Of a stretch of 30,664 bases of DNA, positions 7,698 through 28,413 are shown piece after piece. Position 1 is the stretch's first letter. The number at the start of each line of letters is the position of its first letter. The notes below the pieces were generated by a model that did not search any database, was not told the DNA's origin, and worked only from the letters and a program-made list of their open reading frames with translations. The position numbers and the translations under genes were made by a program. Source of the stretch: a virus (taxonomy: Duplodnaviria > Heunggongvirae > Uroviricota > Caudoviricetes); the IMG/VR virus record IMGVR_UViG_2802429251_000007, positions 1 to 30,664 of that record, one strand, 5' to 3'.

Positions 7698-7754
7698 GCA
7701 TTACAGCAGCTCTTCTGTGAGGGGCTGCGATAATGTCACTAAGAGGAAAAATTC

Positions 7755-8504
7755 ATGGCAAAACCGGACTGGGAGGCCATCGAATCGGCATACCGGGCCG
7801 GAGTCCTTAGCCTCCGTGATATAGGCGAGAAATACGGCGTAACAGAAGGGGCTATCAGGAAGAGGGCTAAAAAGCTTGGTTGGGTACGCAGTGGCGGTAC
7901 GCAGGTTTGCAAAAATGGTACGCAAAAAAGAAAAGTGCGTACCAGCAGAAAGCCTGCCATTACTGACCTTACACAAAAAGGTACGCAACCAAAAACAGAA
8001 CCTACACCGGATACGAAACCGATACGCGGAATGCGTACCGATCCCCCGACTAACCCATTCCAACCCGGTAACCAGCAGGCATTAAAACACGGTGGTTATG
8101 CCCGTCGCCTTCTGCTCAAAGATGAGGTGATAGAGGATGCTAAAGCGTTGACGCTCGAGGACGAATTATTTCGCCTTCGTGCTAACAACCTTGTCGCTGC
8201 AGAGAATATTGGTCGGTGGTTGGTGTCGCTGGAAGATGCTAATGGGGACCAGGAAAGGAAGATGCTGATGGAAAATATCAGCGCCGCCGAGAAAGCAATG
8301 ATGCGCAATACAGTTCGTATTGAGTCCATCGTTGGCACGCTTGCGACGGTAGGAAAAATATTTGCTGATACAGCCTACCGCAAGGCCGCCACTGATAAGG
8401 TGTCTCTGGAGGCTGATCGTCTTCGCCGTGATGCAGGTATTGATGATGGCAATGGAGAGCGTGACCTCAATGACTTCTACTCTGACATCCAAACCGACGC
8501 TTAA
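7755..8504 (+). CDS. terS: Terminase small subunit with an N-terminal HTH.
   Basis: MAKPDWEAIESAYRAGVLSLRDIGEKYGVTEGAIRKRAKKLGW... Sits directly upstream of the large terminase. AGAGGA Shine-Dalgarno. Confidence 0.65.
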   Translation: MAKPDWEAIESAYRAGVLSLRDIGEKYGVTEGAIRKRAKKLGWVRSGGTQVCKNGTQKRKVRTSRKPAITDLTQKGTQPKTEPTPDTKPIRGMRTDPPTNPFQPGNQQALKHGGYARRLLLKDEVIEDAKALTLEDELFRLRANNLVAAENIGRWLVSLEDANGDQERKMLMENISAAEKAMMRNTVRIESIVGTLATVGKIFADTAYRKAATDKVSLEADRLRRDAGIDDGNGERDLNDFYSDIQTDA

Positions 8505-9873
8505 TCCGGCTTTACGTAGTTTCTGGACTACGCGGGCACGTAACAAAGTGCTTTATGGTGGCCGGTCATCGTCAAAATCATGGGATGCCGCTGGCATTGC
8601 CATATTTCTGTCGAATAAATACACCCTGCGTTTTTGTTGTGCCCGTCAGATCCAGAATAAAATCGAAGAGTCGGTGTATACCCTGCTCAAAATTCAGATA
8701 GACAGGTTTGGCCTGCGGCACCGTTTCCGGATTCTGAACAACAAAATCATTAACCGGGTTACTGGCTCGGAATTTGTTTTTTATGGATTATGGCGCAACA
8801 TCGAAGAAATTAAGTCACTGGAGGGGATCGACGTGTTGTGGCTGGAAGAAGCCCACGCACTGACTGAATACCAGTGGAAAATTCTGGAGCCAACGATCCG
8901 TAAAGAGGGTTCGGAATGCTGGTTCATATTCAACCCCGGACTTGTTACTGATTTCGTCTGGCGTAACTTCGTTGTTGATCCGCCTGAAGGCACTCTCATC
9001 CGCAAAATTAACTATGACGAAAATCCGTTTCTGTCTGACACCATGCTTAAGGTTATCGACGCGGCGCGACGCCGTGATCCGGATGGTTTTAAACATGTGT
9101 ATGAGGGCGTTCCGGAGTCTGATGATGATGCGGCAATCATCAAACTGTCCTGGATAGAAGCCGCAGTGGATGCGCACAAAACGTTAAATTTCGAACCCAG
9201 TGGAAGAAAGCGTATTGGCTTTGACGTGGCTGACAGTGGTACAGATAAGTGCGCTAACGTTTACCGTCACGGATCCGTTGTTTTCTGGGCCGACGAATGG
9301 AAGGCCAAAGAAGATGAATTACTGAAGAGCTGCCAGCGTACTTATCAGGCGGCGCTGGAGCGTGAAGCAGATATTGTTTACGACTCTATCGGTGTTGGTG
9401 CTTCTGCCGGTGCTAAATTCTCTGAAATTAACGCTGACCGGAAGAGCGAGAATGCATACGCGCGACGTGTGAATTACCAGAGGTTTAACGCCGGCGCTGG
9501 TGTGCATGAACCAGATGACGAATACAACGGCATCCCCAACAAAGACTTTTTCGCAAATCTTAAGGCTCAGGCATGGTGGCTGGTGGCTGACCGTTTCAGA
9601 AATACGTTTAACGCCATTAACAACGGAGAACAGTATCCTGTGGATGAGCTGATCAGCATAGATTCTCGTTGTCCGTTGCTTGAAAAGCTGAAACTGGAAC
9701 TGACAACACCTCATCGTGATTTCGACCGTAACGGACGTGTGATGGTCGAAAGTAAAAAAGACCTCGCAAAACGCGAGATACCGTCACCAAACGTTGCTGA
9801 CGCATTCATTATGGCCTTCGCGCCAATTGATACATCGCTGGATATCTGGGAACAGCTGGGGAGACAGGCCTGA
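8470..9873 (+). CDS. terL: Terminase large subunit (Terminase_3/PBSX-type). ATPase Walker A YGGRSSSKS. Start ambiguous between 8452 and 8470.
   Basis: Walker A motif and C-terminal nuclease-like region. Overlaps the terS end. Confidence 0.8.
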   Translation: MTSTLTSKPTLNPALRSFWTTRARNKVLYGGRSSSKSWDAAGIAIFLSNKYTLRFCCARQIQNKIEESVYTLLKIQIDRFGLRHRFRILNNKIINRVTGSEFVFYGLWRNIEEIKSLEGIDVLWLEEAHALTEYQWKILEPTIRKEGSECWFIFNPGLVTDFVWRNFVVDPPEGTLIRKINYDENPFLSDTMLKVIDAARRRDPDGFKHVYEGVPESDDDAAIIKLSWIEAAVDAHKTLNFEPSGRKRIGFDVADSGTDKCANVYRHGSVVFWADEWKAKEDELLKSCQRTYQAALEREADIVYDSIGVGASAGAKFSEINADRKSENAYARRVNYQRFNAGAGVHEPDDEYNGIPNKDFFANLKAQAWWLVADRFRNTFNAINNGEQYPVDELISIDSRCPLLEKLKLELTTPHRDFDRNGRVMVESKKDLAKREIPSPNVADAFIMAFAPIDTSLDIWEQLGRQA

Positions 9874-11342
9874 TGGCACGAAACAAACAAGCCCTGCGGC
9901 GAACTGCGCAGGCCACAGCTGATGGTTATGAGAATTTTATTGCCCGCGTAGGGATGCAGACACCTAACCAGCACTCAGCATCCACCTACCGGGCTAATTT
10001 TACCAGTCGTAACCGCATGCTGGTGGAATGGTCCTATCGTTCATCCTGGATCATCGGCGAAGCAGTCGATGCTATCCCGGATGATATGACCCGCAAAGGC
10101 ATTCGCATCACTTCGGAAATTGATGCAAAAGATCGCGGCATTCTCGAATCACAACTTGATGAGTTGCAAATCTGGGATGCGCTGAATGACGTGCTGAAAT
10201 GGTCTCGTCTCTATGGCGGTGCGGTTGGCTTCATCATGATCGAGGGGCAGGCACCAATGACCCCGCTGCGGCTCGAAACCATTGGAGAAGGCAAGTTTAA
10301 GGGCATTCTCCCGCTCGACCGCTGGATGATTAACCCGGTGCTGACCCGCCGCATTAAAGAGATGGGGCCGGATCTCGGCAAACCTGAGTTTTACGATGTG
10401 GTGACCACTGCAACGGGCATCCCGGCCTGGCGCATCCATCACAGCCGCCTGATTCGCTTCGATGGCGTCACGCTGCCATTCCAGCAGAAGATGACCGAGA
10501 ACGAATGGGGAATGTCGGTTGTAGAGCGAATCTGGGATCGGCTTACTGCGTTCGACAGCGCCACTGTCGGCGCGGCTCAGCTGGTCTACAAAGCGCATCT
10601 GCGCACCTACAGCGTGGAGAAGCTGCGCGAGATTATCGCGCTTGGTGGCCCAGCTTTCGAAGCGTTGCTGAAGAACATCGACCTGATCCGCCAGTTCCAG
10701 AGCAATGAAGGCATGACGCTCATGGACTCGCGGGATAAGTTTGAAACGCATCAGTACAGCTTCAGTGGTCTGGATGACATCCTATCGCAGTTTGCAGAAC
10801 AGATTAGTGGCGCTGTTGGTATTCCACTGGTGCGGTTGTTCGGACAGTCCCCGAAAGGATTTTCTACCGGTGATGCAGATCTTGCCAACTATTACGACCG
10901 GGTGAGCTCATTGCAGGAGCGCCGCTTACGGATGCCGATGCGCCGGATACTGGACATTATGCACCGCTCGGAACTCGGTAAGCCGCTGCCGGACGATTTC
11001 ACGTTTGAGTTTAACCCGCTCTGGCAAATGTCTGATGTCGATCGCTCAACGGTGGCGTTAAACACTACCAACGCAATCAGTACGGCGCTGGGTGATGGTC
11101 TGATGACACTGAAAGCCGCTATGACCGATTTGCGCGAAAATTCTGACGTAACCGGCATCGGGGCATCCATTACCGACGAGGACATAGAGAATGCCGAAGA
11201 CGAAGCGCCGCCAGGCATCGGCGAACTTGGCGACAAACCGCCAGAGTCGCCAGGCGGAGATCCGATATCGAACGAGCCTACGGCAGATAGCGCGGGCGGT
11301 CGGGGATATCGTAAATGGGCGCTACGATGGTTCAAACGATAG
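9873..11342 (+). CDS. Portal protein, DUF1073-type.
   Basis: Size and position after terL. Sequence resembles DUF1073 portal proteins. ATGA overlap with the terL stop. Confidence 0.7.
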   Translation: MARNKQALRRTAQATADGYENFIARVGMQTPNQHSASTYRANFTSRNRMLVEWSYRSSWIIGEAVDAIPDDMTRKGIRITSEIDAKDRGILESQLDELQIWDALNDVLKWSRLYGGAVGFIMIEGQAPMTPLRLETIGEGKFKGILPLDRWMINPVLTRRIKEMGPDLGKPEFYDVVTTATGIPAWRIHHSRLIRFDGVTLPFQQKMTENEWGMSVVERIWDRLTAFDSATVGAAQLVYKAHLRTYSVEKLREIIALGGPAFEALLKNIDLIRQFQSNEGMTLMDSRDKFETHQYSFSGLDDILSQFAEQISGAVGIPLVRLFGQSPKGFSTGDADLANYYDRVSSLQERRLRMPMRRILDIMHRSELGKPLPDDFTFEFNPLWQMSDVDRSTVALNTTNAISTALGDGLMTLKAAMTDLRENSDVTGIGASITDEDIENAEDEAPPGIGELGDKPPESPGGDPISNEPTADSAGGRGYRKWALRWFKR

Positions 11343-11964
11343 CGTAACCGAAATAATGGATGCGCTGGAGCGCTACAGCGAAATCATCACCCCCTGGGCG
11401 ACGAAGGTAGCTGAGAACTTTACCGCAGACATAGCGCGCCAGAATGAAAAGCAGTGGCGTCAACACAGCCGGAACATCAGCGCAGAGCTGCGCAACATGG
11501 TCGACCGCGCCCCGGTAGGCCAGGTGATGAAATCCATCGTCGCCGAGCAAATTAAGTACATCAAGTCACTGCCTCTTGAGGCCGCCGATCGGGTGTATGA
11601 CATTCAGAACAAGGCCATCGAGGCCGTTGTGTCTGGTGGCCGCGCTGAGCCATTCGCGAAAGAGATAGCTGCGTCCGGTGACGTGTCACGCTCACGAGCG
11701 AACCTTATCGCCCGTACTGAACTTGGACGTGCAACCGGCGCGCTGGATCAGGCGCGTGCGCTGTCAATCGGCTCGAATGGTTATATCTGGCGTACAGCCG
11801 AAGATGGCGACGTCCGGCATTCTCATCGGGAGATGGAAGGTAAGTTTGTCGAATGGGGCAAACCTCCAACGCTTGATGGCATGACCGGTCACGCTGGCGA
11901 GCTCCCGAATTGTCGCTGTTATAAAGAAATCGTTTTTCCCACCTCCCATTCTTATCCCGCCTGA
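11191..11964 (+). CDS. Head morphogenesis protein, Phage_Mu_F / SPP1 gp7 family.
   Basis: C-terminal GELPNCRCY motif and overall similarity to MuF-like proteins. Its annotated start overlaps the portal gene by about 150 nt in another frame. Confidence 0.65.
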   Translation: MPKTKRRQASANLATNRQSRQAEIRYRTSLRQIARAVGDIVNGRYDGSNDSVTEIMDALERYSEIITPWATKVAENFTADIARQNEKQWRQHSRNISAELRNMVDRAPVGQVMKSIVAEQIKYIKSLPLEAADRVYDIQNKAIEAVVSGGRAEPFAKEIAASGDVSRSRANLIARTELGRATGALDQARALSIGSNGYIWRTAEDGDVRHSHREMEGKFVEWGKPPTLDGMTGHAGELPNCRCYKEIVFPTSHSYPA

Positions 11965-11978
11965 ATCGCAGGTAACAC

Positions 11979-13199
11979 ATGAAATATTTTTTCAATACCC
12001 GGCTGGGGGAAACCCGCTATCAGCTGGCTGACGGCTCGTTGCTGTGCAAAGACGTGCCGATAGGACGAACAGGTAAGCAGCTCTATGGTGCTGATGACCT
12101 GCCAAAACTGAAACCCGATAAGTTCGGTGAAATAGTCGTCACGCGTTCTCCTGAGCAGGTATTCCATCCCGCCACGCTTGCCTCATTCGAAGGAATGAGT
12201 ATCACGGTGTTGCATCCCGAGGATGAAAACGGGGATGTGCGGCTGGTAAATCCCGAGAACTGGAAAGAGCTTGCTGTCGGGCATCTTCAGAATGTGCGGC
12301 GCGGGACCGGTGACCAGTCTGATTTGATGCTGGCTGACCTTATCGTCAAAGACGAAAGCGCCATTCAGCTTATCGAAGATGGCCTGCGCGAAGTGTCGTG
12401 TGGCTATGACGCGGAGTACGAGCAGACCGAGCCAGGTAAAGCCGAGCAGGTCGATATTACCGGAAACCATGTGGCTCTTGTCCCCAAAGGCAGAGCCGGA
12501 AATCGTTGTGCAATTGGAGACAGAGACACAATGGCAAATCAAAAGAAAAACTGGTGGAACCGCATGCGTGCAGCCATCAAGACAGGAGATGCCGACACCA
12601 TGAACGAACTGGTGGAGTCGGCTCCCGCATCGGTTACAGGAGATGAGGGGGATTTGCCGCAGGGCGTTAATCTCAACATCAACCTGTCCCCGCAGCAACC
12701 GCTACCGGACAAAGCACCAGAGATGGGCGGAGGTCCAACCGGCGACAGTGATGATGACCTCAAAACATTACTGAAAGCCCTGCTGGCTAAGCTGGAAGGA
12801 AATGCGACGGGCGATAACGACAATAAGCCTGACGATAATCCGACCGGTGACGGCGAGGACGATGAAGAGGAAACCACGATTACTGGTGACTCAGCCTGGC
12901 GTGCCGAAGTTATCGTTCCGGGTATCGATCTGAGCCGTAAGATGAAACCGACCGCGTTCAAACGTGAGGTTCTGGCTTCTGCTGACAAAACGCTGGTTCG
13001 CCAGATAGTCGGTGATGCGGATATCCGCAAATTACCGAAACAATCGGTCAACATGGCGTTTAATGCCGTGTCTGAGATTGCCAAAGGGCGAAACACCCGC
13101 GCCACCACCGGCGATGCACAGCGCCCAAACATGGGCATGACCAGTATCGCTTCCCTGAACAAACAAAACGCTGAATTCTGGGCAAACCGTAAAGGGTAA
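11979..13199 (+). CDS. Scaffold-like protein, DUF2213-type, with an acidic low-complexity linker.
   Basis: Position between the MuF-like and capsid genes. Has a Gly/Asp/Glu-rich linker (TGDSDDDLK...DGEDDEEETT). Confidence 0.55.
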   Translation: MKYFFNTRLGETRYQLADGSLLCKDVPIGRTGKQLYGADDLPKLKPDKFGEIVVTRSPEQVFHPATLASFEGMSITVLHPEDENGDVRLVNPENWKELAVGHLQNVRRGTGDQSDLMLADLIVKDESAIQLIEDGLREVSCGYDAEYEQTEPGKAEQVDITGNHVALVPKGRAGNRCAIGDRDTMANQKKNWWNRMRAAIKTGDADTMNELVESAPASVTGDEGDLPQGVNLNINLSPQQPLPDKAPEMGGGPTGDSDDDLKTLLKALLAKLEGNATGDNDNKPDDNPTGDGEDDEEETTITGDSAWRAEVIVPGIDLSRKMKPTAFKREVLASADKTLVRQIVGDADIRKLPKQSVNMAFNAVSEIAKGRNTRATTGDAQRPNMGMTSIASLNKQNAEFWANRKG

Positions 13200-13202
13200 A
13201 AA

Positions 13203-13709
13203 ATGAATAATGTATTTCTGTACCGGATGCCTGTTGGCATTGCCGGGGCCGTCTCTCGCCCGCAGGACTTAACCGTCGAACCGGTGGTCCTTAAATCCGA
13301 TAACGCCTTCGCTGCCTATGGCCTGGCTGGTAAATACGATGATGACGGTTTTTTCGTGCCGCTGGCAGATGGTGATACCGCAGACAAAGTGAAGGGGATC
13401 TACGTGCGCCCTTATCCGACCACTTCGCAGCCGGACATGGTTCGCCAGGTGGGGACTGGCAAGAACTTCCCGGGCGACGCCATGAAGCGTGGCTACGTGA
13501 CCGTTAATCTCGGTTCTGATTTTGATGCCAGCACCATCAAAAAAGGCGACCCGGTATACGTTGTCGTCTCCACTGATGAATCCATCAAAGTGCCGCTGGG
13601 TGGATTCATGGCCACGTCAGTCAGTGGCAAAAACGTGGTGCTGACCAACGCTGAATTCACAGGTGCCGGTGATGCTGACGGCAATGCAGAAATTTCCTGG
13701 AAGATTTAA
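13203..13709 (+). CDS. Capsid-associated structural protein, possibly a decoration/cement protein. 168 aa.
   Basis: Immediately precedes the major capsid gene. Beta-rich sequence typical of head-decoration proteins. Family not firmly recognised. Confidence 0.45.
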   Translation: MNNVFLYRMPVGIAGAVSRPQDLTVEPVVLKSDNAFAAYGLAGKYDDDGFFVPLADGDTADKVKGIYVRPYPTTSQPDMVRQVGTGKNFPGDAMKRGYVTVNLGSDFDASTIKKGDPVYVVVSTDESIKVPLGGFMATSVSGKNVVLTNAEFTGAGDADGNAEISWKI

Positions 13710-13720
13710 GGAACAGACGA

Positions 13721-14662
13721 ATGATTACTTTTGATCAGGCAACCGTTGACAGCTCTGGTGCCTTTCTCATCGGGGAGCTGGAGCGACTCGACCAGACGCT
13801 GAACCTGCCACTGGTGGGGTACACCTGGACCCGCGATATTCAGTTGCGTGAAGATGTCTCCATTGCAGATGACAGTTCCAGCTGGACGAATACCAGCTTC
13901 GCCGCTGCGGGTACTGGTGCAAATCCGAATGGCAAAAACTGGGTAGGCAAAGACTCAACCGCTATTGCTGGCGTGAACGTGGATATCGGCAAATCCGGTA
14001 ACCCGCTGAACCTGTGGGGGATGGAACTTGGCTGGACGGTCATAGAATTGCAGGCTGCTCAGCAGGTCGGCCGCCCGATTGATACGCAGAAGTATGACGG
14101 TATGCAACTGAAATGGCAGATGGATAACGATGAACAGGTATATGTTGGCGATTCCGCATTAAACCTGAAAGGCCTTGTTACCCTGAACGGTGTTCCTGTC
14201 AACAACGCTGCCAAAACGTGGGCAACCTCAACACCGGACGAAATCCGCGCAAGCATTAACCAGGTGCTGTCTGATGCGTGGGCCGCTTCTGGTTACTCTG
14301 TGGTTCCGCGTGATTTGCTGATCCCACCTGAGCAGTTTGCTCTGTTGTCCAGCATCATCGTTTCATCTGCGGGTAACCAGTCCCTGTTGACGTACCTTCA
14401 GACCAACACCATCAGCTATCACCAGAACGGTGTTCCGCTGAATATCCGCGCGGTTAAATGGCTGAAAGGCCGTGGTGTGGGGAATAAGGATCGCATGGTT
14501 GCGTACACCAACGATAAAAAATACGTCCGCTACCCGCTGGTTCCGCTTCAGAGCGTGCCGGTGCAGTATCGCGGTCTGTATCAGATCGTCACTTACTACG
14601 GCAAGCTGGGTGCAGTCGAGCCAGTGTACAAAGAAACCATTTCGTACGTTGATGGCATTTAA
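13721..14662 (+). CDS. Major capsid protein, DUF2184-like.
   Basis: 313 aa, positioned after the scaffold and decoration genes. AAGGAA Shine-Dalgarno. Followed by a strong mRNA hairpin. Confidence 0.7.
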   Translation: MITFDQATVDSSGAFLIGELERLDQTLNLPLVGYTWTRDIQLREDVSIADDSSSWTNTSFAAAGTGANPNGKNWVGKDSTAIAGVNVDIGKSGNPLNLWGMELGWTVIELQAAQQVGRPIDTQKYDGMQLKWQMDNDEQVYVGDSALNLKGLVTLNGVPVNNAAKTWATSTPDEIRASINQVLSDAWAASGYSVVPRDLLIPPEQFALLSSIIVSSAGNQSLLTYLQTNTISYHQNGVPLNIRAVKWLKGRGVGNKDRMVAYTNDKKYVRYPLVPLQSVPVQYRGLYQIVTYYGKLGAVEPVYKETISYVDGI

Positions 14663-14669
14663 CAGCCAC

Positions 14670-14690
14670 ATGGCCCCCTGGCGGGGCCAT
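14670..14690 (+). other. Stable hairpin ATGGCCCC-CTGGC-GGGGCCAT right after the capsid stop, with no U-tract.
   Basis: Perfect 8-bp inverted repeat read directly. Plausible mRNA 3' stabiliser or partial terminator. Confidence 0.4.
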
Positions 14691-14703
14691 TAAGGATGAC
14701 CAG

Positions 14704-14925
14704 ATGGCAAAAAATAATGCAGTAATACACGTACATACCCCGTTTGTGCTCACGCTTCCCGACGGTTCACGGCGCGAGTTTGTTAAAGGCCGTCATGCAG
14801 TGGAGGAAGACGTTGCCACGCACTGGTTCACTCGTGCGCACGCGGAAGTATCCGTTGGCAAAGACACTGACGCGCGTAACGAGGTAAAAAATGCCAAAGA
14901 ATCAAAGTCTGCCAGCGGTAAGTGA
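14704..14925 (+). CDS. Small phage head-tail protein, 73 aa.
   Basis: ORF with Shine-Dalgarno inside the structural operon. No family recognised. Confidence 0.4.
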
Positions 14926-15298
14926 TTTTCGCCGCGACTTCCCGCAGTTTGCTGACCCTGCCAAATATCCCGAAGCGCAAATCCAGTTTCGTCTGAATCT
15001 GGCCGATGAACTGCTGAGCGAAAACGTCACCGGAAAAAAGTTGTTTCCGTACTTTGCCGAGTTGTTCGTGGCTCACTACATGACGCTATGGGCGGCAGAT
15101 AGTCGGGCAATGCTGGTTGGCGGCCCGGGCGGTTCAACCAATGGTGTTCAATCCTCAAAGTCTGTTGACAAGGTAAGCGTCAGTTATGACACCAGCGCGA
15201 CGCTGAATCCTGATGCAGGTTTCTGGAATAACACCCGACATGGCGCTGAATTTTATCAGTTGATCACGATGTTCGGTGCAGGTGGTCGCCAGCTATGA
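14891..15298 (+). CDS. Head-tail connector protein, DUF4054-like.
   Basis: GAGGT Shine-Dalgarno. Sequence resembles DUF4054 proteins. Position after the capsid gene. Confidence 0.5.
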
Positions 15299-15849
15299 GC
15301 TTCAAAAGCGGTGTAACAACGAGGGTGGATAACGCTCAGGCCATTCTGGATGCGCTCAGGTCGCTAACCAAAAAGGATGTGCTGGTCGGCATCCCTTCGG
15401 AAGACAGCGGGCGGGATGATGTTCCGTTTGGTAATGCGGGCATCGGTTACCTCAACGAATACGGCTCACCAGAGCAGAATATCCCGCCACGACCTCACCT
15501 GGTCCCCGGCGTTAAATCGGCAGAAGAGCAGACGGTGCCGCAGCTCAAAGCCGCGGCGCAGGCTGCACTTGATGGTAATGCTGCGGGAGCAGAAAGTGCA
15601 CTCAACCGTGCCGGAACGCTGGCCGCTAATGGCGTCAGGCGTTACATGACCATTACCGGCTTTACGCCGCTTGCTGACAGTACTGTTGAAGCCCGGGCTC
15701 GTCGGGGGCGCAAGGGGGCAACACTGGAACTTGCCCGGCGTGCTGCTGGCGAATCTCCGGGAACCGATCTGGCGAAACCATTAATTGACACCGGGCAATA
15801 TCGCAGAGCCATTACCCATGTTGTGAGGGATAAAGATGCCGACTCTTGA
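15295..15849 (+). CDS. Phage structural/morphogenesis protein, 184 aa.
   Basis: ATGA-coupled ORF in the head-tail joining region. Confidence 0.4.
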
Positions 15850-16225
15850 TGTAACAGATGTGCTTTTTGACCCCGATTTTTGCGACTTCAATTTGTGGGT
15901 AACACGCCGAGTGCAAACGGTGGATGAGGACGGGATCGGCAGCGACAGTGAAGTTAAAAAGCAGTTTGCCGGAGTCGTAACTGTTGATCGCTCTCTGGAA
16001 AACCGCCGTATGCAGGCAGGGCAGGTAATCAGTGGTGCAATTCTGATTGTGACGACTGAGCGACTGACGCAGGGACAGACTGGCCGTGATTCCGATATCG
16101 TGACGTATCAGGGCCGTGATTACCGTGTGACCTTCGTCGACCCGTATACAGCTTATGGTGCCGGATTCGTTCAGGCGCATTGTGAGTTGCTGCCGTTTGA
16201 TGGGGGAATTCCGGTTGAGCAATAA
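15836..16225 (+). CDS. Phage structural protein, 129 aa. Possible tail completion or adaptor.
   Basis: GAGGGA Shine-Dalgarno. Overlaps its neighbours. Confidence 0.4.
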   Translation: MPTLDVTDVLFDPDFCDFNLWVTRRVQTVDEDGIGSDSEVKKQFAGVVTVDRSLENRRMQAGQVISGAILIVTTERLTQGQTGRDSDIVTYQGRDYRVTFVDPYTAYGAGFVQAHCELLPFDGGIPVEQ

Positions 16226-16763
16226 CACCAGCACAGAGCGCGGATGGCTGATACCAACCAGTGGCGATCCGGATTATGACGAAGCGCTCGACAGGCTGTT
16301 AAGCCAGTGGATGCGTAACGTTTCCGGTCTGTCTGCCGGGATGGTTCGTCCGCGCTGGCAGAAAGAGCAACCGCCACTGCTACCAGCTGAAACGAACTGG
16401 TGTGCGTTTGGGGTTATCGGATGGTCAGGTGATGACAGCCCGGCATTCACCAGACAGACCGATGATGGCTCTCAGCTCTGGCGGCATGAAACGATTGAGT
16501 GTATGGCTTCGTTTTATGGTCCGGCGGGGATGGTGTATGCGTCCCGGTTTCGTGACGGTATATCTGTACCGCAGAACAACGCAGCACTGAATGCGCTGGG
16601 GCTGTCTCTTGGCGATTACACAGGTCTGACTCCCTTCCCTGAACTTATTAATCAGCAATGGGTCCGCCGCTACGATATGACGGTGCGTCTGCGCCGGAAG
16701 GTTGTGCGCGAGTACGGTATTAAATCGCTGGTGGAAGCACCAGTCATCTTTTTCGGAGATTAA
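16200..16763 (+). CDS. Phage structural protein, about 187 aa. Start uncertain: ATG 16200 or TTG 16215.
   Basis: ORF immediately upstream of the sheath gene. Confidence 0.4.
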   Translation: MGEFRLSNNTSTERGWLIPTSGDPDYDEALDRLLSQWMRNVSGLSAGMVRPRWQKEQPPLLPAETNWCAFGVIGWSGDDSPAFTRQTDDGSQLWRHETIECMASFYGPAGMVYASRFRDGISVPQNNAALNALGLSLGDYTGLTPFPELINQQWVRRYDMTVRLRRKVVREYGIKSLVEAPVIFFGD

Positions 16764-16766
16764 GCT

Positions 16767-17912: not shown

Positions 17913-17922
17913 GGGGAAGTGA

Positions 17923-18363: not shown

Positions 18364-18366
18364 TAC

Positions 18367-20985: not shown

Positions 20986-21572
20986 TGGATATTCTCTCTA
21001 CACTTTTTCATCAGCAGAGCAGAAAAATAGGAATGATTGTTCCCAGTGTTGTTATTTCAGAGAAGCATACAGATATGCTTGAAATAACCGAGCATCCGGT
21101 AGAGGTTGGGGCTGCTGTCGCTGATCATGCCTATAAAAAACCGTCAGAAGTGGTGATGGAGGTTGGTTTCGCCGGTGGCGGCACATTGCTGGATTTTGCC
21201 AGTAACCTGACGGCTACCAGCCTGCTCGGCCTGAGTCCTCAGCAGACGTATCAGGAGCTACTGGATTTGCAGGAAAGCCGTATCCCCTTCGATGTGGTAA
21301 CCGGTAAACGGCTGTACAGCAACATGTTGATCCGGGCGCTGGAAGTGACGACGGACAAGACAACCGAAAATGTCCTGTCCGCCGTCCTTACCCTGAGGGA
21401 GGTCCTTATCTCCCGGACACAGCAGATTACCGTCGCGGATAAAACCAACATGAAGGAAGGGGCCAGCACGTCGGCGGTACAGAATAGCGGCAACAAAACC
21501 ACAAAGCCTCCAGATACTTCACTGCTGAAAAGCATTACGGGTAACGTGGCGTCATTACTGGGGGGCGGCTAA
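20985..21572 (+). CDS. Tail protein, 195 aa, in the post-tape-measure position (gpU/DNA-circulation-like slot).
   Basis: GTG start overlapping the tape measure TAG stop, with a GGTGAGGGTGGG Shine-Dalgarno. Confidence 0.4.
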   Translation: MDILSTLFHQQSRKIGMIVPSVVISEKHTDMLEITEHPVEVGAAVADHAYKKPSEVVMEVGFAGGGTLLDFASNLTATSLLGLSPQQTYQELLDLQESRIPFDVVTGKRLYSNMLIRALEVTTDKTTENVLSAVLTLREVLISRTQQITVADKTNMKEGASTSAVQNSGNKTTKPPDTSLLKSITGNVASLLGGG

Positions 21573-21874
21573 TGACAATTCAGGAAATTCCGCTGACAGC
21601 GGACAATCAGCAGTTCAGCATCGTCCTGGGTGGTGTCACCTGGCGGATTAGCATCATATGGCGCGATCTGTACTGGATTATGGACCTGCAGAACGACAGA
21701 GGGGAGCCGGTAATCTCCGGTATTCCTCTCGTCACTGGTGCTGACCTGCTGGCGCAGTACGCCTGTATGGGGCTTGGTTTTAAGCTGGTGGTGGTCTGTG
21801 ATGACAACACACAGGATTACCCCACAAAAACTGACCTGGGCGGTCGCAGCCATTTACTGGTATCAACGGAGTAA
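21572..21874 (+). CDS. Small tail/baseplate protein, 100 aa.
   Basis: TAATG-coupled ORF with a G-rich Shine-Dalgarno. Confidence 0.4.
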   Translation: MTIQEIPLTADNQQFSIVLGGVTWRISIIWRDLYWIMDLQNDRGEPVISGIPLVTGADLLAQYACMGLGFKLVVVCDDNTQDYPTKTDLGGRSHLLVSTE

Positions 21875-21876
21875 GC

Positions 21877-22941
21877 ATGTCACAGAACTGGATGAGACAT
21901 TTCGAGCTGCAGCTTGTGGACGGGAACGGTCAGGGAATTGAGCTAAGTGATTTCAAAGTCACCTTTACGATCGACTGGTTCAACATCAGCAGCGCGTCCC
22001 GGGTAGGGACTATCAAAATTTATAACCTCTCGGCAGATACTGTGAACCGAATCACTGGGAAGGAATTTTCGAAAGTGCGGCTGATTGCCGGTTACGACGG
22101 TATCGCGCCGGAGGTGGCGGCAAGCGACGTCGGGACCGTGCGCGAAGTCGACGCGGCGGACGTGGGCCAGACAGATGGCCGCAACTACGGACTGATTTTC
22201 AGCGGTGAAATTCGCTACTCGGTCACAGGAAAAGACAGTCCGGTTGATACCTACGTCCTGATTCAGGCAGCAGATACTGATCTGGCATTTGCCACCAGTA
22301 TAACCTCACAGACGCTGGCTGCCGGTTACACGGTCGCAGATGTGAACCGTGCGCTGATGAAAGACTTTGAGGCCAAAGGCGCGACCGAAGGACTGACGCC
22401 TGAAATGCCTGCTACCGTATACCCTCGAGGGCGGGTGCTGTTCGGCATGACACGGCATCTTATGGATAACGTGGCCGGACAATGTGGCGCAACATGGCAA
22501 TTTGTGGACGGTCAGCGCCAGATGGTGGCGAATAACGAGTATGTTCACGACGCGATTGTGCTCAACAGCGCCACCGGGCTTATCGGCATGCCGCAGCAGA
22601 CTATCGGCAACGGTGTAAACGTCCGCGCTCTTATTAATCCGAACATCCGGGTTAACGGGCTTATTCAGCTGGATCAGGCTTCCGTGTACCGCACCGCGCT
22701 GTCGAACAATGATATTGCGATGGCTGGTGGGCAGATCACCGACCAGAACACGGACGGAAATATCACGCTAAGCGGCACCACATCGCAGCCTGCCAGCATC
22801 GCAACGGATGGCGTTTATATTGTGCGCGGGATTATGTACACTGGCGACACAAGGGGCCAGGCGTGGTACATGGATATGATGTGCTTTGCTCGAGGTGCTA
22901 GTGATATTCCTAGCCAGTCAGCGATGAATCGAGGTGCATAA
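21877..22941 (+). CDS. Baseplate hub-like protein, 354 aa, gpD/gp44-like by position.
   Basis: Size and position before the spike/W/J/I block. GGAG Shine-Dalgarno. Confidence 0.45.
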   Translation: MSQNWMRHFELQLVDGNGQGIELSDFKVTFTIDWFNISSASRVGTIKIYNLSADTVNRITGKEFSKVRLIAGYDGIAPEVAASDVGTVREVDAADVGQTDGRNYGLIFSGEIRYSVTGKDSPVDTYVLIQAADTDLAFATSITSQTLAAGYTVADVNRALMKDFEAKGATEGLTPEMPATVYPRGRVLFGMTRHLMDNVAGQCGATWQFVDGQRQMVANNEYVHDAIVLNSATGLIGMPQQTIGNGVNVRALINPNIRVNGLIQLDQASVYRTALSNNDIAMAGGQITDQNTDGNITLSGTTSQPASIATDGVYIVRGIMYTGDTRGQAWYMDMMCFARGASDIPSQSAMNRGA

Positions 22942-22943
22942 TA

Positions 22944-23669
22944 GTGAGCAGGCTTGCGATAACCACAATCGTATTTTCTCTTTTTTTAACTTCATGTAGT
23001 TGGGATCCTAATGGTGCTAAAGCGCAGGGAAAATGGCTATCCCAAAAAAATGAAGAAAAACAAGCGTACGATAAGCAAGTTGAGGAGAGCCAGAAAAGCA
23101 GGCTTCAAATACAGCGCGAAGAAAAGTCTCAATTTGAAGTTTCACATCCAGAGGTTATCGTTGCTGGTGTTGGGAACGAGCTTAAAAGTAAGGGTGCAGA
23201 ATCTTTGCGAGATGCGTACAACAGCATTCCATTCGTAACTCGTTATCCGGGAACCACGGACCCTAACAAAGTTTATACCTATGTCGGTGACTACAAATTA
23301 AATTTGCAACTGGTTAACACATCTGTGCTTTCTCAGATCTCAGATTGCAAACGCATTTCAGCGTATGCCGATGTTGATATTAATCGTACTTGCTTCAATC
23401 AAATTGGAAATGATTTGAGTTTGTTTGCATCTGTAATTAAAGACAAAAATATTACTGGAATTGCAAAAAAAGCAGCTCTACGAGATTCAACTTACGGAAC
23501 TAAAATTGATTTTGGTCATGCTGCGCGTTTAGCAAAAATGCATGCCACTTTATGCCAAAAGCAGGGCGGTAAAGGATTTGTCAAAATGTCGACTGTAGCT
23601 GTGCCTTGCGGCTCTTCAGGCGATGTAATTAACTATCGAAGCGCCGGTAAGATGGGGCTTATAAACTGA
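22944..23669 (+). CDS. Lipoprotein moron, 241 aa. Lipobox LTSC. AT-rich cargo inside the baseplate operon.
   Basis: MSRLAITTIVFSLFLTSCSW... GTG start 7 nt after a GAGGTG Shine-Dalgarno. Composition is visibly more AT-rich than the flanking tail genes. Its own terminator follows. Confidence 0.6.
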   Translation: MSRLAITTIVFSLFLTSCSWDPNGAKAQGKWLSQKNEEKQAYDKQVEESQKSRLQIQREEKSQFEVSHPEVIVAGVGNELKSKGAESLRDAYNSIPFVTRYPGTTDPNKVYTYVGDYKLNLQLVNTSVLSQISDCKRISAYADVDINRTCFNQIGNDLSLFASVIKDKNITGIAKKAALRDSTYGTKIDFGHAARLAKMHATLCQKQGGKGFVKMSTVAVPCGSSGDVINYRSAGKMGLIN

Positions 23670-23690
23670 AAAGATCAAATTAGTCACATA

Positions 23691-23716
23691 AAACCCGCCG
23701 GATGGCGGGTTTTTTG
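23691..23716 (+). terminator. Rho-independent terminator after the lipoprotein moron.
   Basis: CCCGCC-GGAT-GGCGGG followed by TTTTTT. Confidence 0.8.
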
Positions 23717-23734
23717 CTTTCTGGAGCCTACTAA

Positions 23735-24487
23735 ATGGCAGTATCTGACCAGACCCGCAGCGGCGACCTTGCCGAAACATTTAAATCTGAACGGGAAACA
23801 ACAAAGAACCAGATCCGTGTCGCCTTGCCAGGCATTGTTCAGTCATTCGCTCCTGATGCGGTGACGGCGGTTGTACAGCCTGCTATCCGTTACGTTGAAA
23901 TTGATAACGACGGCAACCGCATTACCAAAAATTACCCATTGCTGGTGGATGTGCCAGTGGTATTCCCGCGTGGCGGAGGCTGTACGCTAACGTTTCCAGT
24001 TAAAGCCGGTGATGAATGCCTGGTGATTTTTGCCGATCGTTGTATTGATTTCTGGTGGCAGAGTGGCGGGATACAGGAGCCGGTCGATGACCGGGTGCAT
24101 GATTTATCGGATGCTTTCTGTATCGTCGGGCCGCAGTCTCAGGCGCAGAAAATAAGCGGAATAAGCACCAGTGGCGCGCAGCTGCGTAGTGACGACGGCA
24201 GCACCTATTTTGAGCTTAATCCTGATACCAGGAAAATTAAAATTGTCGCTCCGGGTGGTCTTGATGTGGTTGCCCCTCTGGCTGATTTTTCTGAGAAAGT
24301 AACCATTCATGGCCTGTTAACCTGGATGGGGGGCATGGTGGGGTCTGTTGTTTCTGGTGTGGCTTCAAAAATCACTGGTGCTGTTGAGTTTTTGGGTAGC
24401 GTGAAGGCTAACGGCAAGCTAATCGATGATACGCACACTCATGGTGGTGTTCAGCGCGGTGGAAGCAATACCGACGGAGTAAACTGA
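23735..24487 (+). CDS. Baseplate central spike protein, gpV/Gp138-like, with C-terminal HxH (THTHGG) motif.
   Basis: Resembles GPV_N-type baseplate assembly protein V. His-x-His near the C-terminus. Confidence 0.6.
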   Translation: MAVSDQTRSGDLAETFKSERETTKNQIRVALPGIVQSFAPDAVTAVVQPAIRYVEIDNDGNRITKNYPLLVDVPVVFPRGGGCTLTFPVKAGDECLVIFADRCIDFWWQSGGIQEPVDDRVHDLSDAFCIVGPQSQAQKISGISTSGAQLRSDDGSTYFELNPDTRKIKIVAPGGLDVVAPLADFSEKVTIHGLLTWMGGMVGSVVSGVASKITGAVEFLGSVKANGKLIDDTHTHGGVQRGGSNTDGVN

Positions 24488-24840
24488 TGCGATACAGACG
24501 TGAAGACGCCGATGGCGATTACACCTTTGGCAGCGGTGATGATACCTGGCTGATTAACTCACCGGAGGCCGTGGCGCAGGCGGTAAAAACGCAATTCGAA
24601 TTGTGGTATGGGCAATGGTTTCTAGACACCACCGAAGGGACTCCGTGGATCCAGTCCGTACTCGGTAAGCAGAAGCCGGAAACCTACAATCTGGCGATCC
24701 GTAAGCGCATCCTCGAAACGCGGGGCGTTAAATCAATCCTCTCTTTCAATACTACAGTGGATACCACGACCCGACGTGTCATGTTTTCCGCTGAAATCGA
24801 CACTCTTTATGGAATAACGACTGTTACATCGGAGGCGTAA
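24487..24840 (+). CDS. Baseplate wedge protein, gpW/gp25-like, 117 aa.
   Basis: Size and position between the V-like and J-like genes. TGATG coupling. Confidence 0.5.
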   Translation: MRYRREDADGDYTFGSGDDTWLINSPEAVAQAVKTQFELWYGQWFLDTTEGTPWIQSVLGKQKPETYNLAIRKRILETRGVKSILSFNTTVDTTTRRVMFSAEIDTLYGITTVTSEA

Positions 24841-26039
24841 TGGCTCTGAACCTTGATTCTCTCGGTTTATCTGCAAAGGTAACCGCGGAGGGGATCAGTG
24901 CGCCTGATTATCAGACGATACTCAGCACCCTGATTGGCTATTTTCAGCAGATTTATGGCAGTGATGCCTACCTCGAACCGGACAGCAAAGACGGCCAGAT
25001 GGTGGCTCTGATGGCGCTGGCGATTCATGATGCCAATAATATGGCGATAACTGTCTACAACTGTTTTTCACCGGCAACCGGCTATGGGGCTGCACTGACC
25101 AGTAACGTGAAAATAAATGGTATTTCACGTAAAGGCGCAACGAATTCTACGGTTGATTTGCTTCTTACAGGAACTGCCGGAACAACCATCATTAATGGCA
25201 GCGTGAAAGACAGTAATAATGTGATATGGCGTTTGCCTGCTTCAGTGGTGGTCGGCGTGGATGGTACAGTGATGGCGACCGCAACATGTTCCGTCAGTGG
25301 TGCAGTGGCGGCGCTGGCTGGAACTATCACTGAAATTAATACGCCAACCCGTGGCTGGGTTTCGGTAACTAATCCTGCTGCGGCTACTGTGGGCACTCCG
25401 GCAGAAACTGACGCTGAGTTACGTATCCGCCAGTCGCAAAGTGTTGCGTTGCCATCAATAACCCCATTTGAAGCACTGGATGGTGCTGTTTCTAATGTTA
25501 CCGGTGTAACCCGCCACAAACTCTATGAAAACGATACTGGTTCGGAGGACGGTAACGGGTTACCGCCACACTCTGTTGCTGTAATTGTGGATGGCGGTGA
25601 TGTGACGGATATTGCTCAGGCTATCAGAGGGAATAAAGGCCAGGGGACAGCCACTCACGGTACAACATCCGTTACGGTTCCGGATAAATACGGCAATCCC
25701 CATGTAATCAAATTCTCGCGTTCCAGTGATGTACCTGTTTATGCCCGGATTAAATTAAAAGTTTTTACGGGTTATACCTCACAGATAGGGCAGCAGATCC
25801 AGCAGGCTATTTCCGGCTATATCAATAGTCTGATGATTGGTGATTCGGTCCTTTTAAGTCGCATTTACTCACCGGCGAATCTTGGCGTGGTGAGTGGCGG
25901 GAATGCACGCTATTACGATATTCAGGAACTGACGATTGGGAAATCCCCGGGGGCTTTGTCGTCATCAAACATTGATATCAGATACAACGAATCTGCGTCC
26001 TGTACCCCGGAAAATATCGTTATAACGGTGGAGTCATGA
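24840..26039 (+). CDS. Baseplate J-like protein (gpJ/gp6 family).
   Basis: 399 aa. Position and similarity to Baseplate_J proteins. Confidence 0.65.
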   Translation: MALNLDSLGLSAKVTAEGISAPDYQTILSTLIGYFQQIYGSDAYLEPDSKDGQMVALMALAIHDANNMAITVYNCFSPATGYGAALTSNVKINGISRKGATNSTVDLLLTGTAGTTIINGSVKDSNNVIWRLPASVVVGVDGTVMATATCSVSGAVAALAGTITEINTPTRGWVSVTNPAAATVGTPAETDAELRIRQSQSVALPSITPFEALDGAVSNVTGVTRHKLYENDTGSEDGNGLPPHSVAVIVDGGDVTDIAQAIRGNKGQGTATHGTTSVTVPDKYGNPHVIKFSRSSDVPVYARIKLKVFTGYTSQIGQQIQQAISGYINSLMIGDSVLLSRIYSPANLGVVSGGNARYYDIQELTIGKSPGALSSSNIDIRYNESASCTPENIVITVES

Positions 26040-26716
26040 GCAAATACACCGAACTAATCACGAACTACCACGCCACCAAACCTAAATTTCTTGCGCATGT
26101 TGATCTGATGACCCGGCCACTTATTGATGTTGCGGCTGCCACCAGAGGGCTGATTACTGCATTTGATATTGACTCTGCGGTTGGTGTGCAACTTGACATT
26201 CTTGGATTGTGGATCGGACGTAGCCGTGTTGTCAGCCAGCCTATCTCAGGTGTCTATTTCAGCTGGGATACCGACGGGCTTGGATATGATCAGGGGGTAT
26301 GGCGGGGACCATACGATCCTGATTCAGGATACATGTATCTCAGCGATGAAACTTATCGTGTCATTCTTAAAGCGAAGATTGCGATTAATAACTGGGACGG
26401 ACGGAATGATTCGCTTCCGGCAATTCTTGACGCTGCAACAGCAGGATCCGGGCTGCGAATGCAGATAGTCGATAACCAGGACATGACGATATCGGTCTGG
26501 GTCTTTCCTGATACTGATATTTCAGATGTATCGCGTGAGTTAATTGCGGCAATTAAACAGGGGTATCTCACAGTTAAAGCCGCCGGGGTTTGGGCGGGTG
26601 ACATTGAAACACCTTCGGTGAAAACCCCATCGGAAGGCTCAAAATTTTTTGGTTTTGATATGGATAACGAATTTATCAGTGGTTTTGATGTAGGGGCATG
26701 GGGAGTATTACTCTGA
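26036..26716 (+). CDS. Tail protein I-like (gpI / YmfQ-like, DUF2313).
   Basis: 226 aa. Follows the J-like gene and precedes the tail fibre, as in P2/Mu/e14. Confidence 0.6.
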
Positions 26717-27792
26717 TGGCAAAAAATGACTTTAAAGCATTCGCAACGGGTAAAAATGCCAATGTTATGCCGCAGGAGGAATGGGAAGCGTTGCCTGCGC
26801 TTTTATCCGGATTTACAGCAGGGAAAGCATCCAGTGCGCAAGTCAATAAGGTTATTCGGCAGGCCAGCTTTATTGCATCTGCAATAGCACAATATACAGC
26901 AAATGAAAGTGGACTGGATGTACAGGACGATGGCGATCAGGCCGGCTTTATCGCAAAAATGTCGTCTGCATTAGATAAGAACTATCAGAGAATTAATGCC
27001 ATACTTACCGCACTTGCTAATCTTTCAGCATCCGAAAACAAATTACCGTATTTTACCAATCAAGATACCGCTAATTTGGCTGACCTGACACAGGTTGGGC
27101 GAGATATTTTGGCAAAAAGCTCTGTTGCTGATGTCCTTAAATATCTTGGTCTGGAAGATAATTCGACCTTTCCTGTAGGTGCCCCGATCCCGTGGCCATC
27201 AGATACAGTTCCATCTGGTTATGCTCTGATGCAGGGACAGACTTTTGACAAGTCTGCATACCCGAAACTTGCAGCCGCTTATCCGTCAGGCGTGATCCCT
27301 GATATGCGTGGCTGGACGATTAAGGGCAAGCCCGCCAGTGGTCGTGCCGTATTGTCTCAGGAACAGGACGGCATTAAATCGCACACCCACAGCGCCAGCG
27401 TATCCAGTACGGATTTGGGTACGAAAACCACATCGTCGTTTGATTACGGGACGAAAACAACCTCACTATTTGACTATGGGACCAAAACTACCAGTAACGC
27501 CGGGAGTCACACGCATTCAATACCAACATCAGATGGTGCAAACCAGGGGGGGAAAATTCCACTGACATCTGGGCGTCTGGCAACTCAATATACATCAGCA
27601 ACAACAGGTTCCTCTGGCTCACATTCTCATACTGTAGGTATTGGTTCTCATCAGCACACTGTCGGTATTGGTGCACACACGCACTCCGTTGCGATTGGTT
27701 CACATGGACACACCATCACCGTTAACGCTGCTGGTAACGCGGAAAACACCGTCAAAAACATCGCATTTAACTATATTGTGAGGCTCGCATAA
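26716..27792 (+). CDS. Tail fibre protein with C-terminal HxH-repeat receptor-binding region.
   Basis: [36 protein letters not shown] repeats. TGATG-coupled start MAKNDFKAF. Confidence 0.8.
27413..27493 (+). repeat. Three imperfect tandem 27-nt repeats inside the tail fibre gene, encoding (L/F)DYGTKTTS.
   Basis: Peptide repeat [29 protein letters not shown] read from the translation. Confidence 0.6.
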
Positions 27793-28370
27793 TGGAATTC
27801 AGAATGAGTGAACAACCACAGACCATAAAAATTTATAATCTGCTGGCCGGAACTAATGAATTTATTGGTGAAGGTGATGCATACATTCCACCTCATACAG
27901 GTCTGCCAGCAAACAGTACCGATATTGCACCGCCAGATATTCCGGCTGGCTTCGTGGCTGTTTTCAACACTGATGAGGCATCGTGGCATCTCGTTGAAGA
28001 CCATCGGGGTAAAACCGTCTATGACGTGGCTTCCGGCGACGCGTTATTTATTTCTGAACTTGGCCCATTACCGGAAAATGTCACCTGGTTATCCCCGGAA
28101 GGGGAGTTTCAGAAGTGGAACGGTACATCTTGGGTGAAAGATGCAGAAGCAGAAAAACTGTTTCGGAGCCAGGAGGCGGAAGAAACAAAAAACAGCCTGA
28201 TGCAGGTAGCTAGCGAGCATATTGCGCCACTTCAGGATGCTGTAGATTTGGATATTGCGACGGAAGAAGAGGCATCGTTACTGGCTGCATGGAAGACATA
28301 TCGGGTATTGTTGAATCGTGTTGATACAACAGTAGCAGCGGATATTGAGTGGCCAGTCGCCCCACAATAA
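27792..28370 (+). CDS. tfa: Tail fibre assembly chaperone, lambda Tfa-like.
   Basis: [59 protein letters not shown]... is nearly collinear with lambda Tfa. Confidence 0.9.
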
Positions 28371-28379
28371 AAAGAAAAA

Positions 28380-28410: not shown

Positions 28411-28413
28411 GCT

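Follow-up and report, generated by a model that had tools for sequence, protein, structure and literature searches.

We analyzed a 30,664-nucleotide (nt) stretch of viral DNA, IMG/VR record IMGVR_UViG_2802429251_000007 (the whole stretch is referred to here as the window), and found that it carries a prophage in which lambdoid control is combined with a contractile tail of the SEN34/XM1 type and with a lambda-type tail fiber tip. The combination is real, it is of a kind that has already been described, and it is common. The window (30.7 kb) comprises the right part of the prophage plus ~1.1 kb of host DNA, and its major genes all lie on the plus strand. Positions 7755 to 28370 very probably form the late operon, for virion assembly, of a temperate prophage residing in the ryeA/sdsR-pphA locus of Escherichia coli or Shigella. 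This prophage type is common in E. coli, and its head-and-tail block looks intact. A first-pass annotation of the window had delimited the same block, and its limits are exact gene limits, with the TerS ATG at 7755 and the last base of the Tfa stop codon at 28370. Within them are 29 same-strand genes that have full-length homologs in relatives, and nearly every gene of the prophage block could be given a domain assignment. The assigned packaging, head, tail, and fiber genes are as follows.

7755-8504, plus strand: TerS (PHROG 370, E 3e-95)
8470-9873, plus strand: TerL, PBSX/Terminase_3 type (PF04466, E 4.5e-38; ATG at 8470 checked)
9873-11342, plus strand: portal (PF06381)
11230-11964, plus strand: MuF-like protein (PF04233)
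11979-13199, plus strand: DUF2213 protein (PF09979)
13203-13709, plus strand: cement/minor capsid protein (PF23982/PF22758)
13721-14662, plus strand: major capsid protein (PF09950)
14704-16763, plus strand: five neck/connector genes, namely STY1053 family, DUF4054, Neck1/tail completion, adaptor, and neck terminator (16215-16763), assigned from PF13262, PF23961, PHROG 222, and the RefSeq names in relatives
16767-17912, plus strand: tail sheath, DUF3383 (PF11863, E 9e-101)
17923-18363, plus strand: tail tube (PF11681, formerly DUF3277, E 9e-61; an identical RefSeq protein is named 'DUF3277 family')
18367-18819, plus strand: tail assembly chaperone (PF21822), with an extension to 19007 in the -1 frame
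18997-20985, plus strand: tape measure protein (weak PF10145 match and homolog annotation; RefSeq 'lytic transglycosylase')
20985-21572, plus strand: Dit-like protein of the inner baseplate (PF21821)
21572-21874, plus strand: plug of the inner baseplate, Pam3 gp18 family (PF22479)
21877-22941, plus strand: hub of the inner baseplate, E217 gp41-like (PF22759)
22944-23669, plus strand: orf241, an orphan predicted lipoprotein (lipobox LTSC, Cys18; 44% GC in this segment)
23735-24487, plus strand: spike with a GpV Apex motif (PF18352 and PF18946)
24487-24840, plus strand: sheath initiator ('W'), 117 amino acids (aa), with PDB sequence matches only (Pam3 gp21, XM1 gp15)
24840-26039, plus strand: Baseplate_J (PF04865)
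26036-26716, plus strand: DUF2612 wedge, 'I' by position (PF11041; PDB matches to Pam3 gp23 and XM1 gp17)
26716-27792, plus strand: chimeric tail fiber of 358 aa, SEN34-like at its N-terminus and lambda Stf-like at its C-terminus
27792-28370, plus strand: Tfa (PF02413, E 1.4e-41; 170 of 191 residues, or 89%, identical to lambda Tfa)

The precedent for this arrangement is Salmonella phage SEN34, a myovirus with a lambda-like genome and a long contractile tail seen by electron microscopy (Mikalova et al., PLoS One 2017, PMC5261728), which is the prototype of the lambda-supercluster group 'temperate 26' (PMC5261728). In its annotation, the virion module that it shares with the prophage comes after cI/cro/cII-like, O/P, NinB/NinG, Q-like, holin, endolysin, and Rz genes. 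From portal to DUF2612, all genes of the prophage except orf241 match SEN34 in order at 65-96% aa identity in tblastn searches, and the matches are full length except for that of the 73-aa STY1053-family gene (51 of 73 residues); the head genes (9873-14662) reach 80-94%. At the nt level, blocks of 75-84% identity run collinearly across 9783-27014. The same portal-to-DUF2612 genes, orf241 again excepted, share 70-100% aa identity (tblastn) with phage vB_EcoM-611R5 (611R5) and with the prophages of E. coli CE0021a and 13E0780. Over 9784-26876, the 611R5 group, CE0021a, and 13E0780 are 94-97% identical to the prophage in nt sequence; CE0021a is collinear at 97% over 7699-24199 and 24427-26876, and 13E0780 at 96-97% over 9784-22884 and 23688-29311. 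Among phage genomes, megablast aligned 75% of the block with the Escherichia phages vB_EcoM-611R5, -683R1, -606R2, and -689R2 at 96% identity, and 72% of it with SEN34 at 82%. A 2026 survey also ties the vB_EcoM phages to Brunovirus SEN34 (PMC12945033). Of 5426 complete E. coli genomes, 52 contain 80% or more of the module, and in at least 12 it is contiguous with the same pphA-yebW flank, which makes SEN34-type lambdoid myoviruses common in E. coli as well as in Salmonella. The first-pass annotation had regarded the junction of lambdoid and contractile-tail parts as informative for tracing module exchange. The comparisons essentially turned up a described, close, and collinear relative, SEN34, published in 2017 and collinear over 9783-27014, next to E. 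coli relatives at 96-97% nt identity. Because SEN34 and the E. coli phages and prophages, including CE0021a at the same site, are already collinear with it, the junctions add little that is new on module exchange.

The functions assigned to the tail genes by the first-pass annotation (DUF3383 sheath, DUF3277 tube, and V/W/J/I baseplate proteins) are right according to Pfam and PDB sequence matches. In the PDB sequence search the sheath matched XM1 gp6 (7kh1, E 6e-41) and the Pam3 sheath (8hdr, E 9e-24), and three proteins in total, namely the sheath, the 117-aa sheath initiator (for which there was no Pfam match), and the DUF2612 protein, could be linked to the solved virions of XM1 (7kh1) and Pam3 (8hdr, 7yfz). 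By sequence, homologs of the sheath, sheath initiator, wedge, plug, hub, cement, and neck proteins occur in Vibrio phage XM1, cyanophage Pam3, and Pseudomonas phage E217, the last of which is known here through Pfam family names only, and these phages therefore provide the likely architecture of the prophage tail, albeit from a distance (E-values of 1e-5 to 1e-41). They are lytic or infect hosts other than enterobacteria, and they have neither lambdoid control nor lambda-type fibers. On sequence comparison, the tail is best placed in the XM1/Pam3/E217/KPP10 simple-baseplate lineage, and the XM1 and Pam3 structures allow many genes still labeled hypothetical in this prophage type to be named. 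At 18768-18774, the chaperone gene has a canonical slippery heptamer, T_TTT_TTG, in the correct phase, and its -1 frame is open for 77 further codons to 19007, ending where the tape measure gene starts; relatives have a DUF6889 open reading frame (ORF) annotated at this extension. The predicted frameshift would be of the usual G/GT type. The structural genes would build a SEN34-type particle consisting of an HK97-fold-type head with portal, MuF-like protein, and cement protein; a contractile tail with DUF3383 sheath, PF11681 tube, and frameshifted chaperone; and a simple baseplate of the XM1/Pam3/E217 kind, assembled from a Dit-like ring, plug, hub, spike, sheath initiator, J, and DUF2612 wedge. 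We infer the contractile morphology from the sheath, tube, and sheath-initiator genes together with the electron microscopy of SEN34. As no part of the module appears to have been inactivated, particles are probably still produced.

The gene order J-I-fiber-tfa-pin had been termed P2/Mu-like, and it raises the question of whether a contractile tail of the P2/Mu/e14 family (V-W-J-I-H-G type) had instead recombined into a lambdoid phage. The order itself stands: spike, small wedge protein, Baseplate_J, wedge, fiber, tfa, and (invertase) mirror P2 V-W-J-I-H-G and Mu gp45-48-S-U-gin. Moreover, J is 25% identical to Mu gp47, the spike carries the GpV Apex motif, and an invertase remnant beyond tfa is 70% identical to e14 PinE. 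Descent in sequence does not stand, however, and the pin gene is present as a remnant only. When all window proteins were compared by tblastn with the complete P2 and Mu genomes and the complete e14 element, only J, patches of the fiber and Tfa, and the pin remnant were recovered, whereas the sheath, tube, chaperone, tape measure, hub, spike, W-like, and DUF2612 proteins had no P2, Mu, or e14 match at E <= 1e-3. Sheath and tube proteins of the P2 FI/FII or Mu L/M type were not found by Pfam or by tblastn against P2 and Mu; the families present are DUF3383, PF11681, Pam3_gp18, E217_GP41, and DUF2612 as opposed to the P2 sheath, tube, and gpI families. Sheath and tube also precede the baseplate genes in one block, whereas P2 has them in a separate F operon after V-W-J-I-H-G, and the closest solved structures for the tail proteins are those of XM1 and Pam3. 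As for V/W/J/I, J matches PF04865, the spike shares the Apex motif only, and 'I' is a DUF2612 protein with no match to a P2 gpI-type family. A P2/Mu/e14 origin of the tail is thus very improbable, and the V/W/J/I parts appear to be functional analogs of their P2/Mu counterparts from a different lineage. Lambdoid genomes with Mu-like contractile tails have long been known from the SfV/SfI/e14 group, a second, independent lambdoid-myovirus lineage (PMC3636060). That group resembles the prophage in its lambdoid organization and contractile tail, in tRNA genes downstream of Q, and, for e14, in a distal Pin invertase, but its head and tail proteins are unrelated at the tblastn level and the invertase of the prophage is a 44-codon remnant.

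The lambdoid part of the prophage lies upstream of 7755 and includes the following features of late control and lysis.

1933-2544, plus strand: nin-type DUF1367 gene, upstream of the Q-like gene
2544-2834, plus strand: nin-type YbcO gene, upstream of the Q-like gene
2831-3385, plus strand: Q-like late antiterminator gene, DUF1133 (PF06576, E 5e-106; PHROG 753 'anti-termination protein Q-like', E 8.5e-80)
3405-3606, plus strand: isrK / c4-a1b1 / C4 antisense RNA cassette, directly 3' of the Q-like gene
3659-4991, plus strand: split ORF6N antirepressor-like gene (PF10543 in the 3' part)
3676-4443, plus strand: IS1 (PF03400, E 6e-78), with an 8-bp duplication, CAAATCTC, read directly
5918-6361, plus strand: holin-family gene 1 of the lysis cassette
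6297-6626, plus strand: holin-family gene 2 of the lysis cassette
6623-7006, plus strand: M15 endolysin of the lysis cassette
7021-7203, plus strand: 60-aa lipoprotein, spanin-like, of the lysis cassette

This is a lambdoid layout, with DUF1367, YbcO, and Q-like genes followed by holins, endolysin, and TerS, and the lysis cassette (5918-7203; PF16931, PF05449, and PF13539 in Pfam, PHROG 7528) occupies the position that it has in lambda. Going by gene order and homology, late transcription would be lambdoid in layout, passing from the Q-like gene through a promoter/terminator region to the lysis cassette and on to the structural genes. The nin, Q-like, and lysis genes thus occur in one prophage with the sheath, tube, and baseplate genes, as the first-pass annotation had proposed. 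That these might be two unrelated neighbors, a decayed lambdoid prophage (nin-Q-lysis) beside a myovirus prophage or tailocin, has some appeal given the IS1 insertion, the vestigial invertase, and the patchy homology in 1-7700, all suggestive of some decay, and given that the same virion module also occurs behind a quite different early region (DNA polymerase, VapE). It is nevertheless very improbable, as the lysis genes and TerS are separated by a 550-bp gap with two small phage ORFs and no integrase, att site, or host gene; the same Q-lysis-terminase-myovirus tail order is found within the single 40.7-kb genome of SEN34, an isolated phage that forms plaques; in 611R5 the genes for Q, holin, endolysin, and Rz immediately precede the terminase; the presence of all head and packaging genes speaks against a tailocin; and host sequence starts only at ~29567.

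Several observations weigh against a single lambdoid prophage of this kind and need to be set beside the evidence for it. The left half of the prophage, with repressor, replication, and integrase genes, lies outside the window, and for this reason the evidence for 'lambdoid control' comes from the nin/Q/lysis segment and from the CE0021a prophage, which is collinear and has a helix-turn-helix repressor pair and YdaT, YdaU, and DnaC-like genes. The Q-like protein scores 25.5 bits against PF06530 Phage_antitermQ, 0.5 bit under the cut-off of 26. The PR'/tR' pair of the first-pass annotation consists of a promoter-like site (3382-3411) and a terminator-like hairpin (3473-3490) that are consensus scan matches only, and promoter-like sites in the scanned region are no more numerous than in shuffles. 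In the late region, IS1 interrupts the ORF6N antirepressor-like gene at codon 6. Finally, none of the genomes in the E. coli set holds the exact combination, as the lysis cassette and the fiber tip are found in different relatives. With respect to the candidate PR' promoter, the transcript downstream of it matches Rfam isrK, and gathering-level Rfam scores were obtained within 3405-3606 for RF01394 (75.6 bits), RF03163 (52.2), and RF01695 (77.6). We take this cassette and the ORF6N antirepressor gene to resemble the P1 immI and Gifsy-1 IsrK arrangements. The otherwise collinear CE0021a prophage lacks IS1 and has an uninterrupted antirepressor gene, and the IS1 insertion may have disabled the anti-repression route of the prophage in the window.

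Fiber tips and their chaperones are exchanged together among unrelated tailed phages (Haggard-Ljungquist et al. 1992; Sandmeier 1994). The fiber of the prophage is a clear chimera, in agreement with the swap proposed in the first-pass annotation. Its residues 1-80 are identical to the SEN34 fiber at 64 of 80 positions (80%) and only ~24% identical to lambda Stf, while residues 161-260 are identical to lambda Stf at 89 of 100 positions and ~16% identical to SEN34; the last 58 residues (301-358) are 86% identical to the Stf C-terminus. A segment at residues ~95-150 (...TLTAL..KLPYF...LT.VGRDI...) is common to all three fibers, and the crossover sits within it. At the nt level, SEN34 homology ends at 27014 and lambda homology begins at 27035. 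The tfa start overlaps the fiber stop, such that the PF02413 chaperone directly follows its cognate fiber gene. An earlier description of Tfa as nearly identical to lambda Tfa is correct as to high identity, but 89% is short of near-identity. Sequence comparison confirms that the fiber/Tfa tip was exchanged with a cassette of the lambda Stf/Tfa type. E. coli 13E0780 has the same chimeric fiber, Tfa, acetyltransferase, and invertase remnant (23688-29311, 96.7% nt identity), so the swap predates the strain that carries the prophage of the window. At 358 aa, the fiber has half the length of lambda Stf (774 aa); ~50 residues of the Gly/His-rich repeat region of Stf are deleted, and its N-terminus attaches to a myovirus baseplate. 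Lambda Stf reportedly uses OmpC as its receptor (Hendrix and Duda 1992), and since the tip is lambda-like, an OmpC-class receptor is likely for this fiber as well. Correct annotation of the prophage type and this receptor prediction are among the practical uses of the comparison. An Rfam 'IS009' match (28135-28333, 189 bits) lies wholly within the 3' part of the tfa coding sequence; it seems to be a coding-sequence match and no separate RNA gene, from a family that models conserved tfa coding DNA.

Beyond tfa, the first-pass annotation had described an e14-like distal end with a pin gene. The region consists of the two genes below.

28414-28986, minus strand: hexapeptide-repeat acetyltransferase (weak PF00132/PF14602; PHROG 2154, E 2e-84; RefSeq 'serine acetyltransferase')
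29137-29268, plus strand: last 44 codons of a Pin/Gin-type DNA invertase, a remnant 70% identical to e14 PinE

The description did not survive closer comparison, as the invertase is a 44-codon remnant that lies behind a minus-strand acetyltransferase gene, ~770 bp beyond tfa, and lacks a pix/gix site. The remnant is 80% identical to the CE0021a recombinase pseudogene and 45% to Mu Gin. An intact serine-recombinase gene and an invertase catalytic domain are absent, with 44 C-terminal codons left, and the pix/gix crossover core (AAACCnnGGTTT) was not found in 26000-29700 at <=1 mismatch by a search able to detect pix in both e14 and 611R5, as well as gix in Mu. Nor is there a second, oppositely oriented set of fiber tip and tfa; the minus strand carries the acetyltransferase gene instead, which stands where relatives have the invertible fiber segment. 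A live invertible segment can be ruled out given that both the pix/gix core and the invertase catalytic domain are missing, and the fiber inversion system of this prophage is extinct; 611R5 (ON470588), unlike the prophage, has kept a pix-flanked invertible segment. The acetyltransferase segment has the low GC content (~40%) of a moron and lies on the strand opposite to tfa, and the two genes share a hairpin at 28371-28410. Its product could possibly serve surface-polysaccharide acetylation (lysogenic conversion). We also noted a 14-nt inverted pair, TCAGCATCCGAAAA / TTTACGGATGCTGA, at 27025-27038 / 29085-29098, which is the only inverted pair at positions comparable to those of crossover sites and brackets the lambda-like tip, tfa, and acetyltransferase block at the homology breaks. 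As crossover sites these repeats were rejected, being unlike pix/gix and of a kind of which we estimate ~1 to occur by chance in 3.7 kb.

Relative to its nearest relatives, the prophage has the following junctions.

~5119-7698: tRNA genes and lysis cassette, common to other prophages such as JNEC-KY178 and not to CE0021a
~9783: TerL/portal boundary; SEN34, 611R5, and 13E0780 hold the other terminase type
20044-20418: variable patch of the tape measure gene
22884-23688: cargo slot between hub and spike
24199-24427: spike C-terminus
26876-27035: fiber N/C boundary
28371-29141: acetyltransferase block
~29567: host junction

Every one of them coincides with the border of a gene or a domain, the usual pattern in phage mosaicism. 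The TerS/TerL pair (7755-9873) is a separate exchange unit: TerL has only 36% aa identity with the terminase found alongside the same set of head and tail genes in SEN34, 611R5, and 13E0780, and TerS is only 49% identical to SEN34 over 78 aa, yet the pair is 99-100% identical to that of CE0021a (TerS 99%), and the terminase genes are ~84% identical in nt sequence to those of many Klebsiella temperate phages (Wanchaivirus and others). Like the prophage, SEN34 has an opposite-strand gene of the acetyltransferase type after its fiber genes, although a different and larger one; it differs in TerS/TerL type (36% aa), Q family, lysis genes, hub-spike cargo, fiber C-terminus, fiber chaperone, host, and integration site. 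At the nt level the TerS/TerL pair, Q, lysis genes, and fiber tip of the prophage have no match to SEN34, and membership in the genus of SEN34 (by convention ~70% nt identity over the full length) seems unlikely. CE0021a shares nin/Q, TerS/TerL, the whole tail with orf241 up to the fiber N-terminus, and the pphA site, and is collinear again from the invertase remnant into pphA; it differs by a lambda-family holin and GH24 endolysin, another fiber tip, and a full-length, pseudogenized invertase. Both 611R5 and 13E0780 differ in having a DNA-polymerase/VapE early region, the other terminase, and the site yfhH-tadA, while 13E0780 has the lambda-like tip and the segment beyond it in common with the prophage. 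A very probable course of events is that the PBSX-type terminase pair replaced a SEN34-type pair at ~9783; that the slot between hub and spike took up a lipoprotein gene; that the fiber kept the baseplate-attachment N-terminus of its lineage and acquired a lambda Stf-like receptor-binding C-terminus with the cognate Tfa; and that the acetyltransferase gene replaced an ancestral Pin-type invertible fiber segment, leaving the tail of the invertase behind. This matters little beyond bookkeeping, in that control regions, packaging genes, tail modules, and fiber tips reassort at gene and domain boundaries.

The slot between the hub and spike genes holds orf241, which had no match in Pfam, PHROG, PADLOC, or the PDB sequences; its AlphaFold2 model has a predicted local distance difference test (pLDDT) score of 85, yet gave no fold match. 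Homologs form just 14 clusters, few of which have taxon names, all enterobacterial, and five cysteines are invariant, the lipobox Cys and four others. Two distant homologs, P0014 (40% identical) and P0010 (46%), come from a Budviciaceae genome and a metagenome contig with divergent tail modules and occupy the same slot (homolog positions 8001-8675 in locus L015 and 8001-8723 in locus L016). SEN34, 611R5, 13E0780, and RM8082 have unrelated small genes there, and among the other occupants in relatives Pfam identified DUF4282 and weak TPR matches only. The slot appears to be a hypervariable cargo site inside the tail operon and could be mined for exclusion or defense genes. As an exported lipoprotein, the product of orf241 could not belong to a virion, which is assembled in the cytoplasm. 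Our best guess, a tentative one, is an envelope function expressed in the lysogen, such as exclusion or receptor masking. It is a rather doubtful further step to regard the slot as a dedicated cargo site and orf241 as a new envelope-located superinfection-exclusion or receptor-masking factor, with a logic like that of T5 Llp or lambdoid Cor.

The remaining features of the window are as follows.

1166-1490: hok/sok type I toxin-antitoxin pair in the nin region (Rfam sok, 108.6 bits; PF01848)
5355-5508: tRNA-Thr and tRNA-Gly, upstream of the lysis genes (ARAGORN)
7330-7542, minus strand: small antisense gene where lambda has bor (PHROG 3292/8113, unknown function)
29502-29601 (strand not applicable): right prophage/host junction, within the ryeA/sdsR small-RNA locus
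29729-30388: pphA, the host gene right of the junction

The antisense gene had been likened to bor, which is apt for its position and orientation. Inspection of the translation ruled out Bor, the PHROG matches being to families of unknown function only; the product looks like a KTSC-domain protein by the same inspection. At the right end, prophage-free E. coli and Shigella genomes, the two groups in which such loci were located by an exact match of a pphA 51-mer, align with the window only from 29567 on, at 98% (blastn). The ryeA/sdsR locus adjoining pphA is given as an insertion hot spot and phage attachment site in the part of PMC3333887 that cites Balbontin et al. 2008. At 29502-29601, the Rfam matches to RyeA (SraC) RF00101 and RF00111 SdsR (RyeB) are sub-threshold only, and because nothing above threshold remains, integration of the prophage may have altered these small RNAs. 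In Shigella flexneri SFBU1023 (locus L011), a 216-bp piece of the prophage end (window 29261-29476) has been kept beside an IS1.

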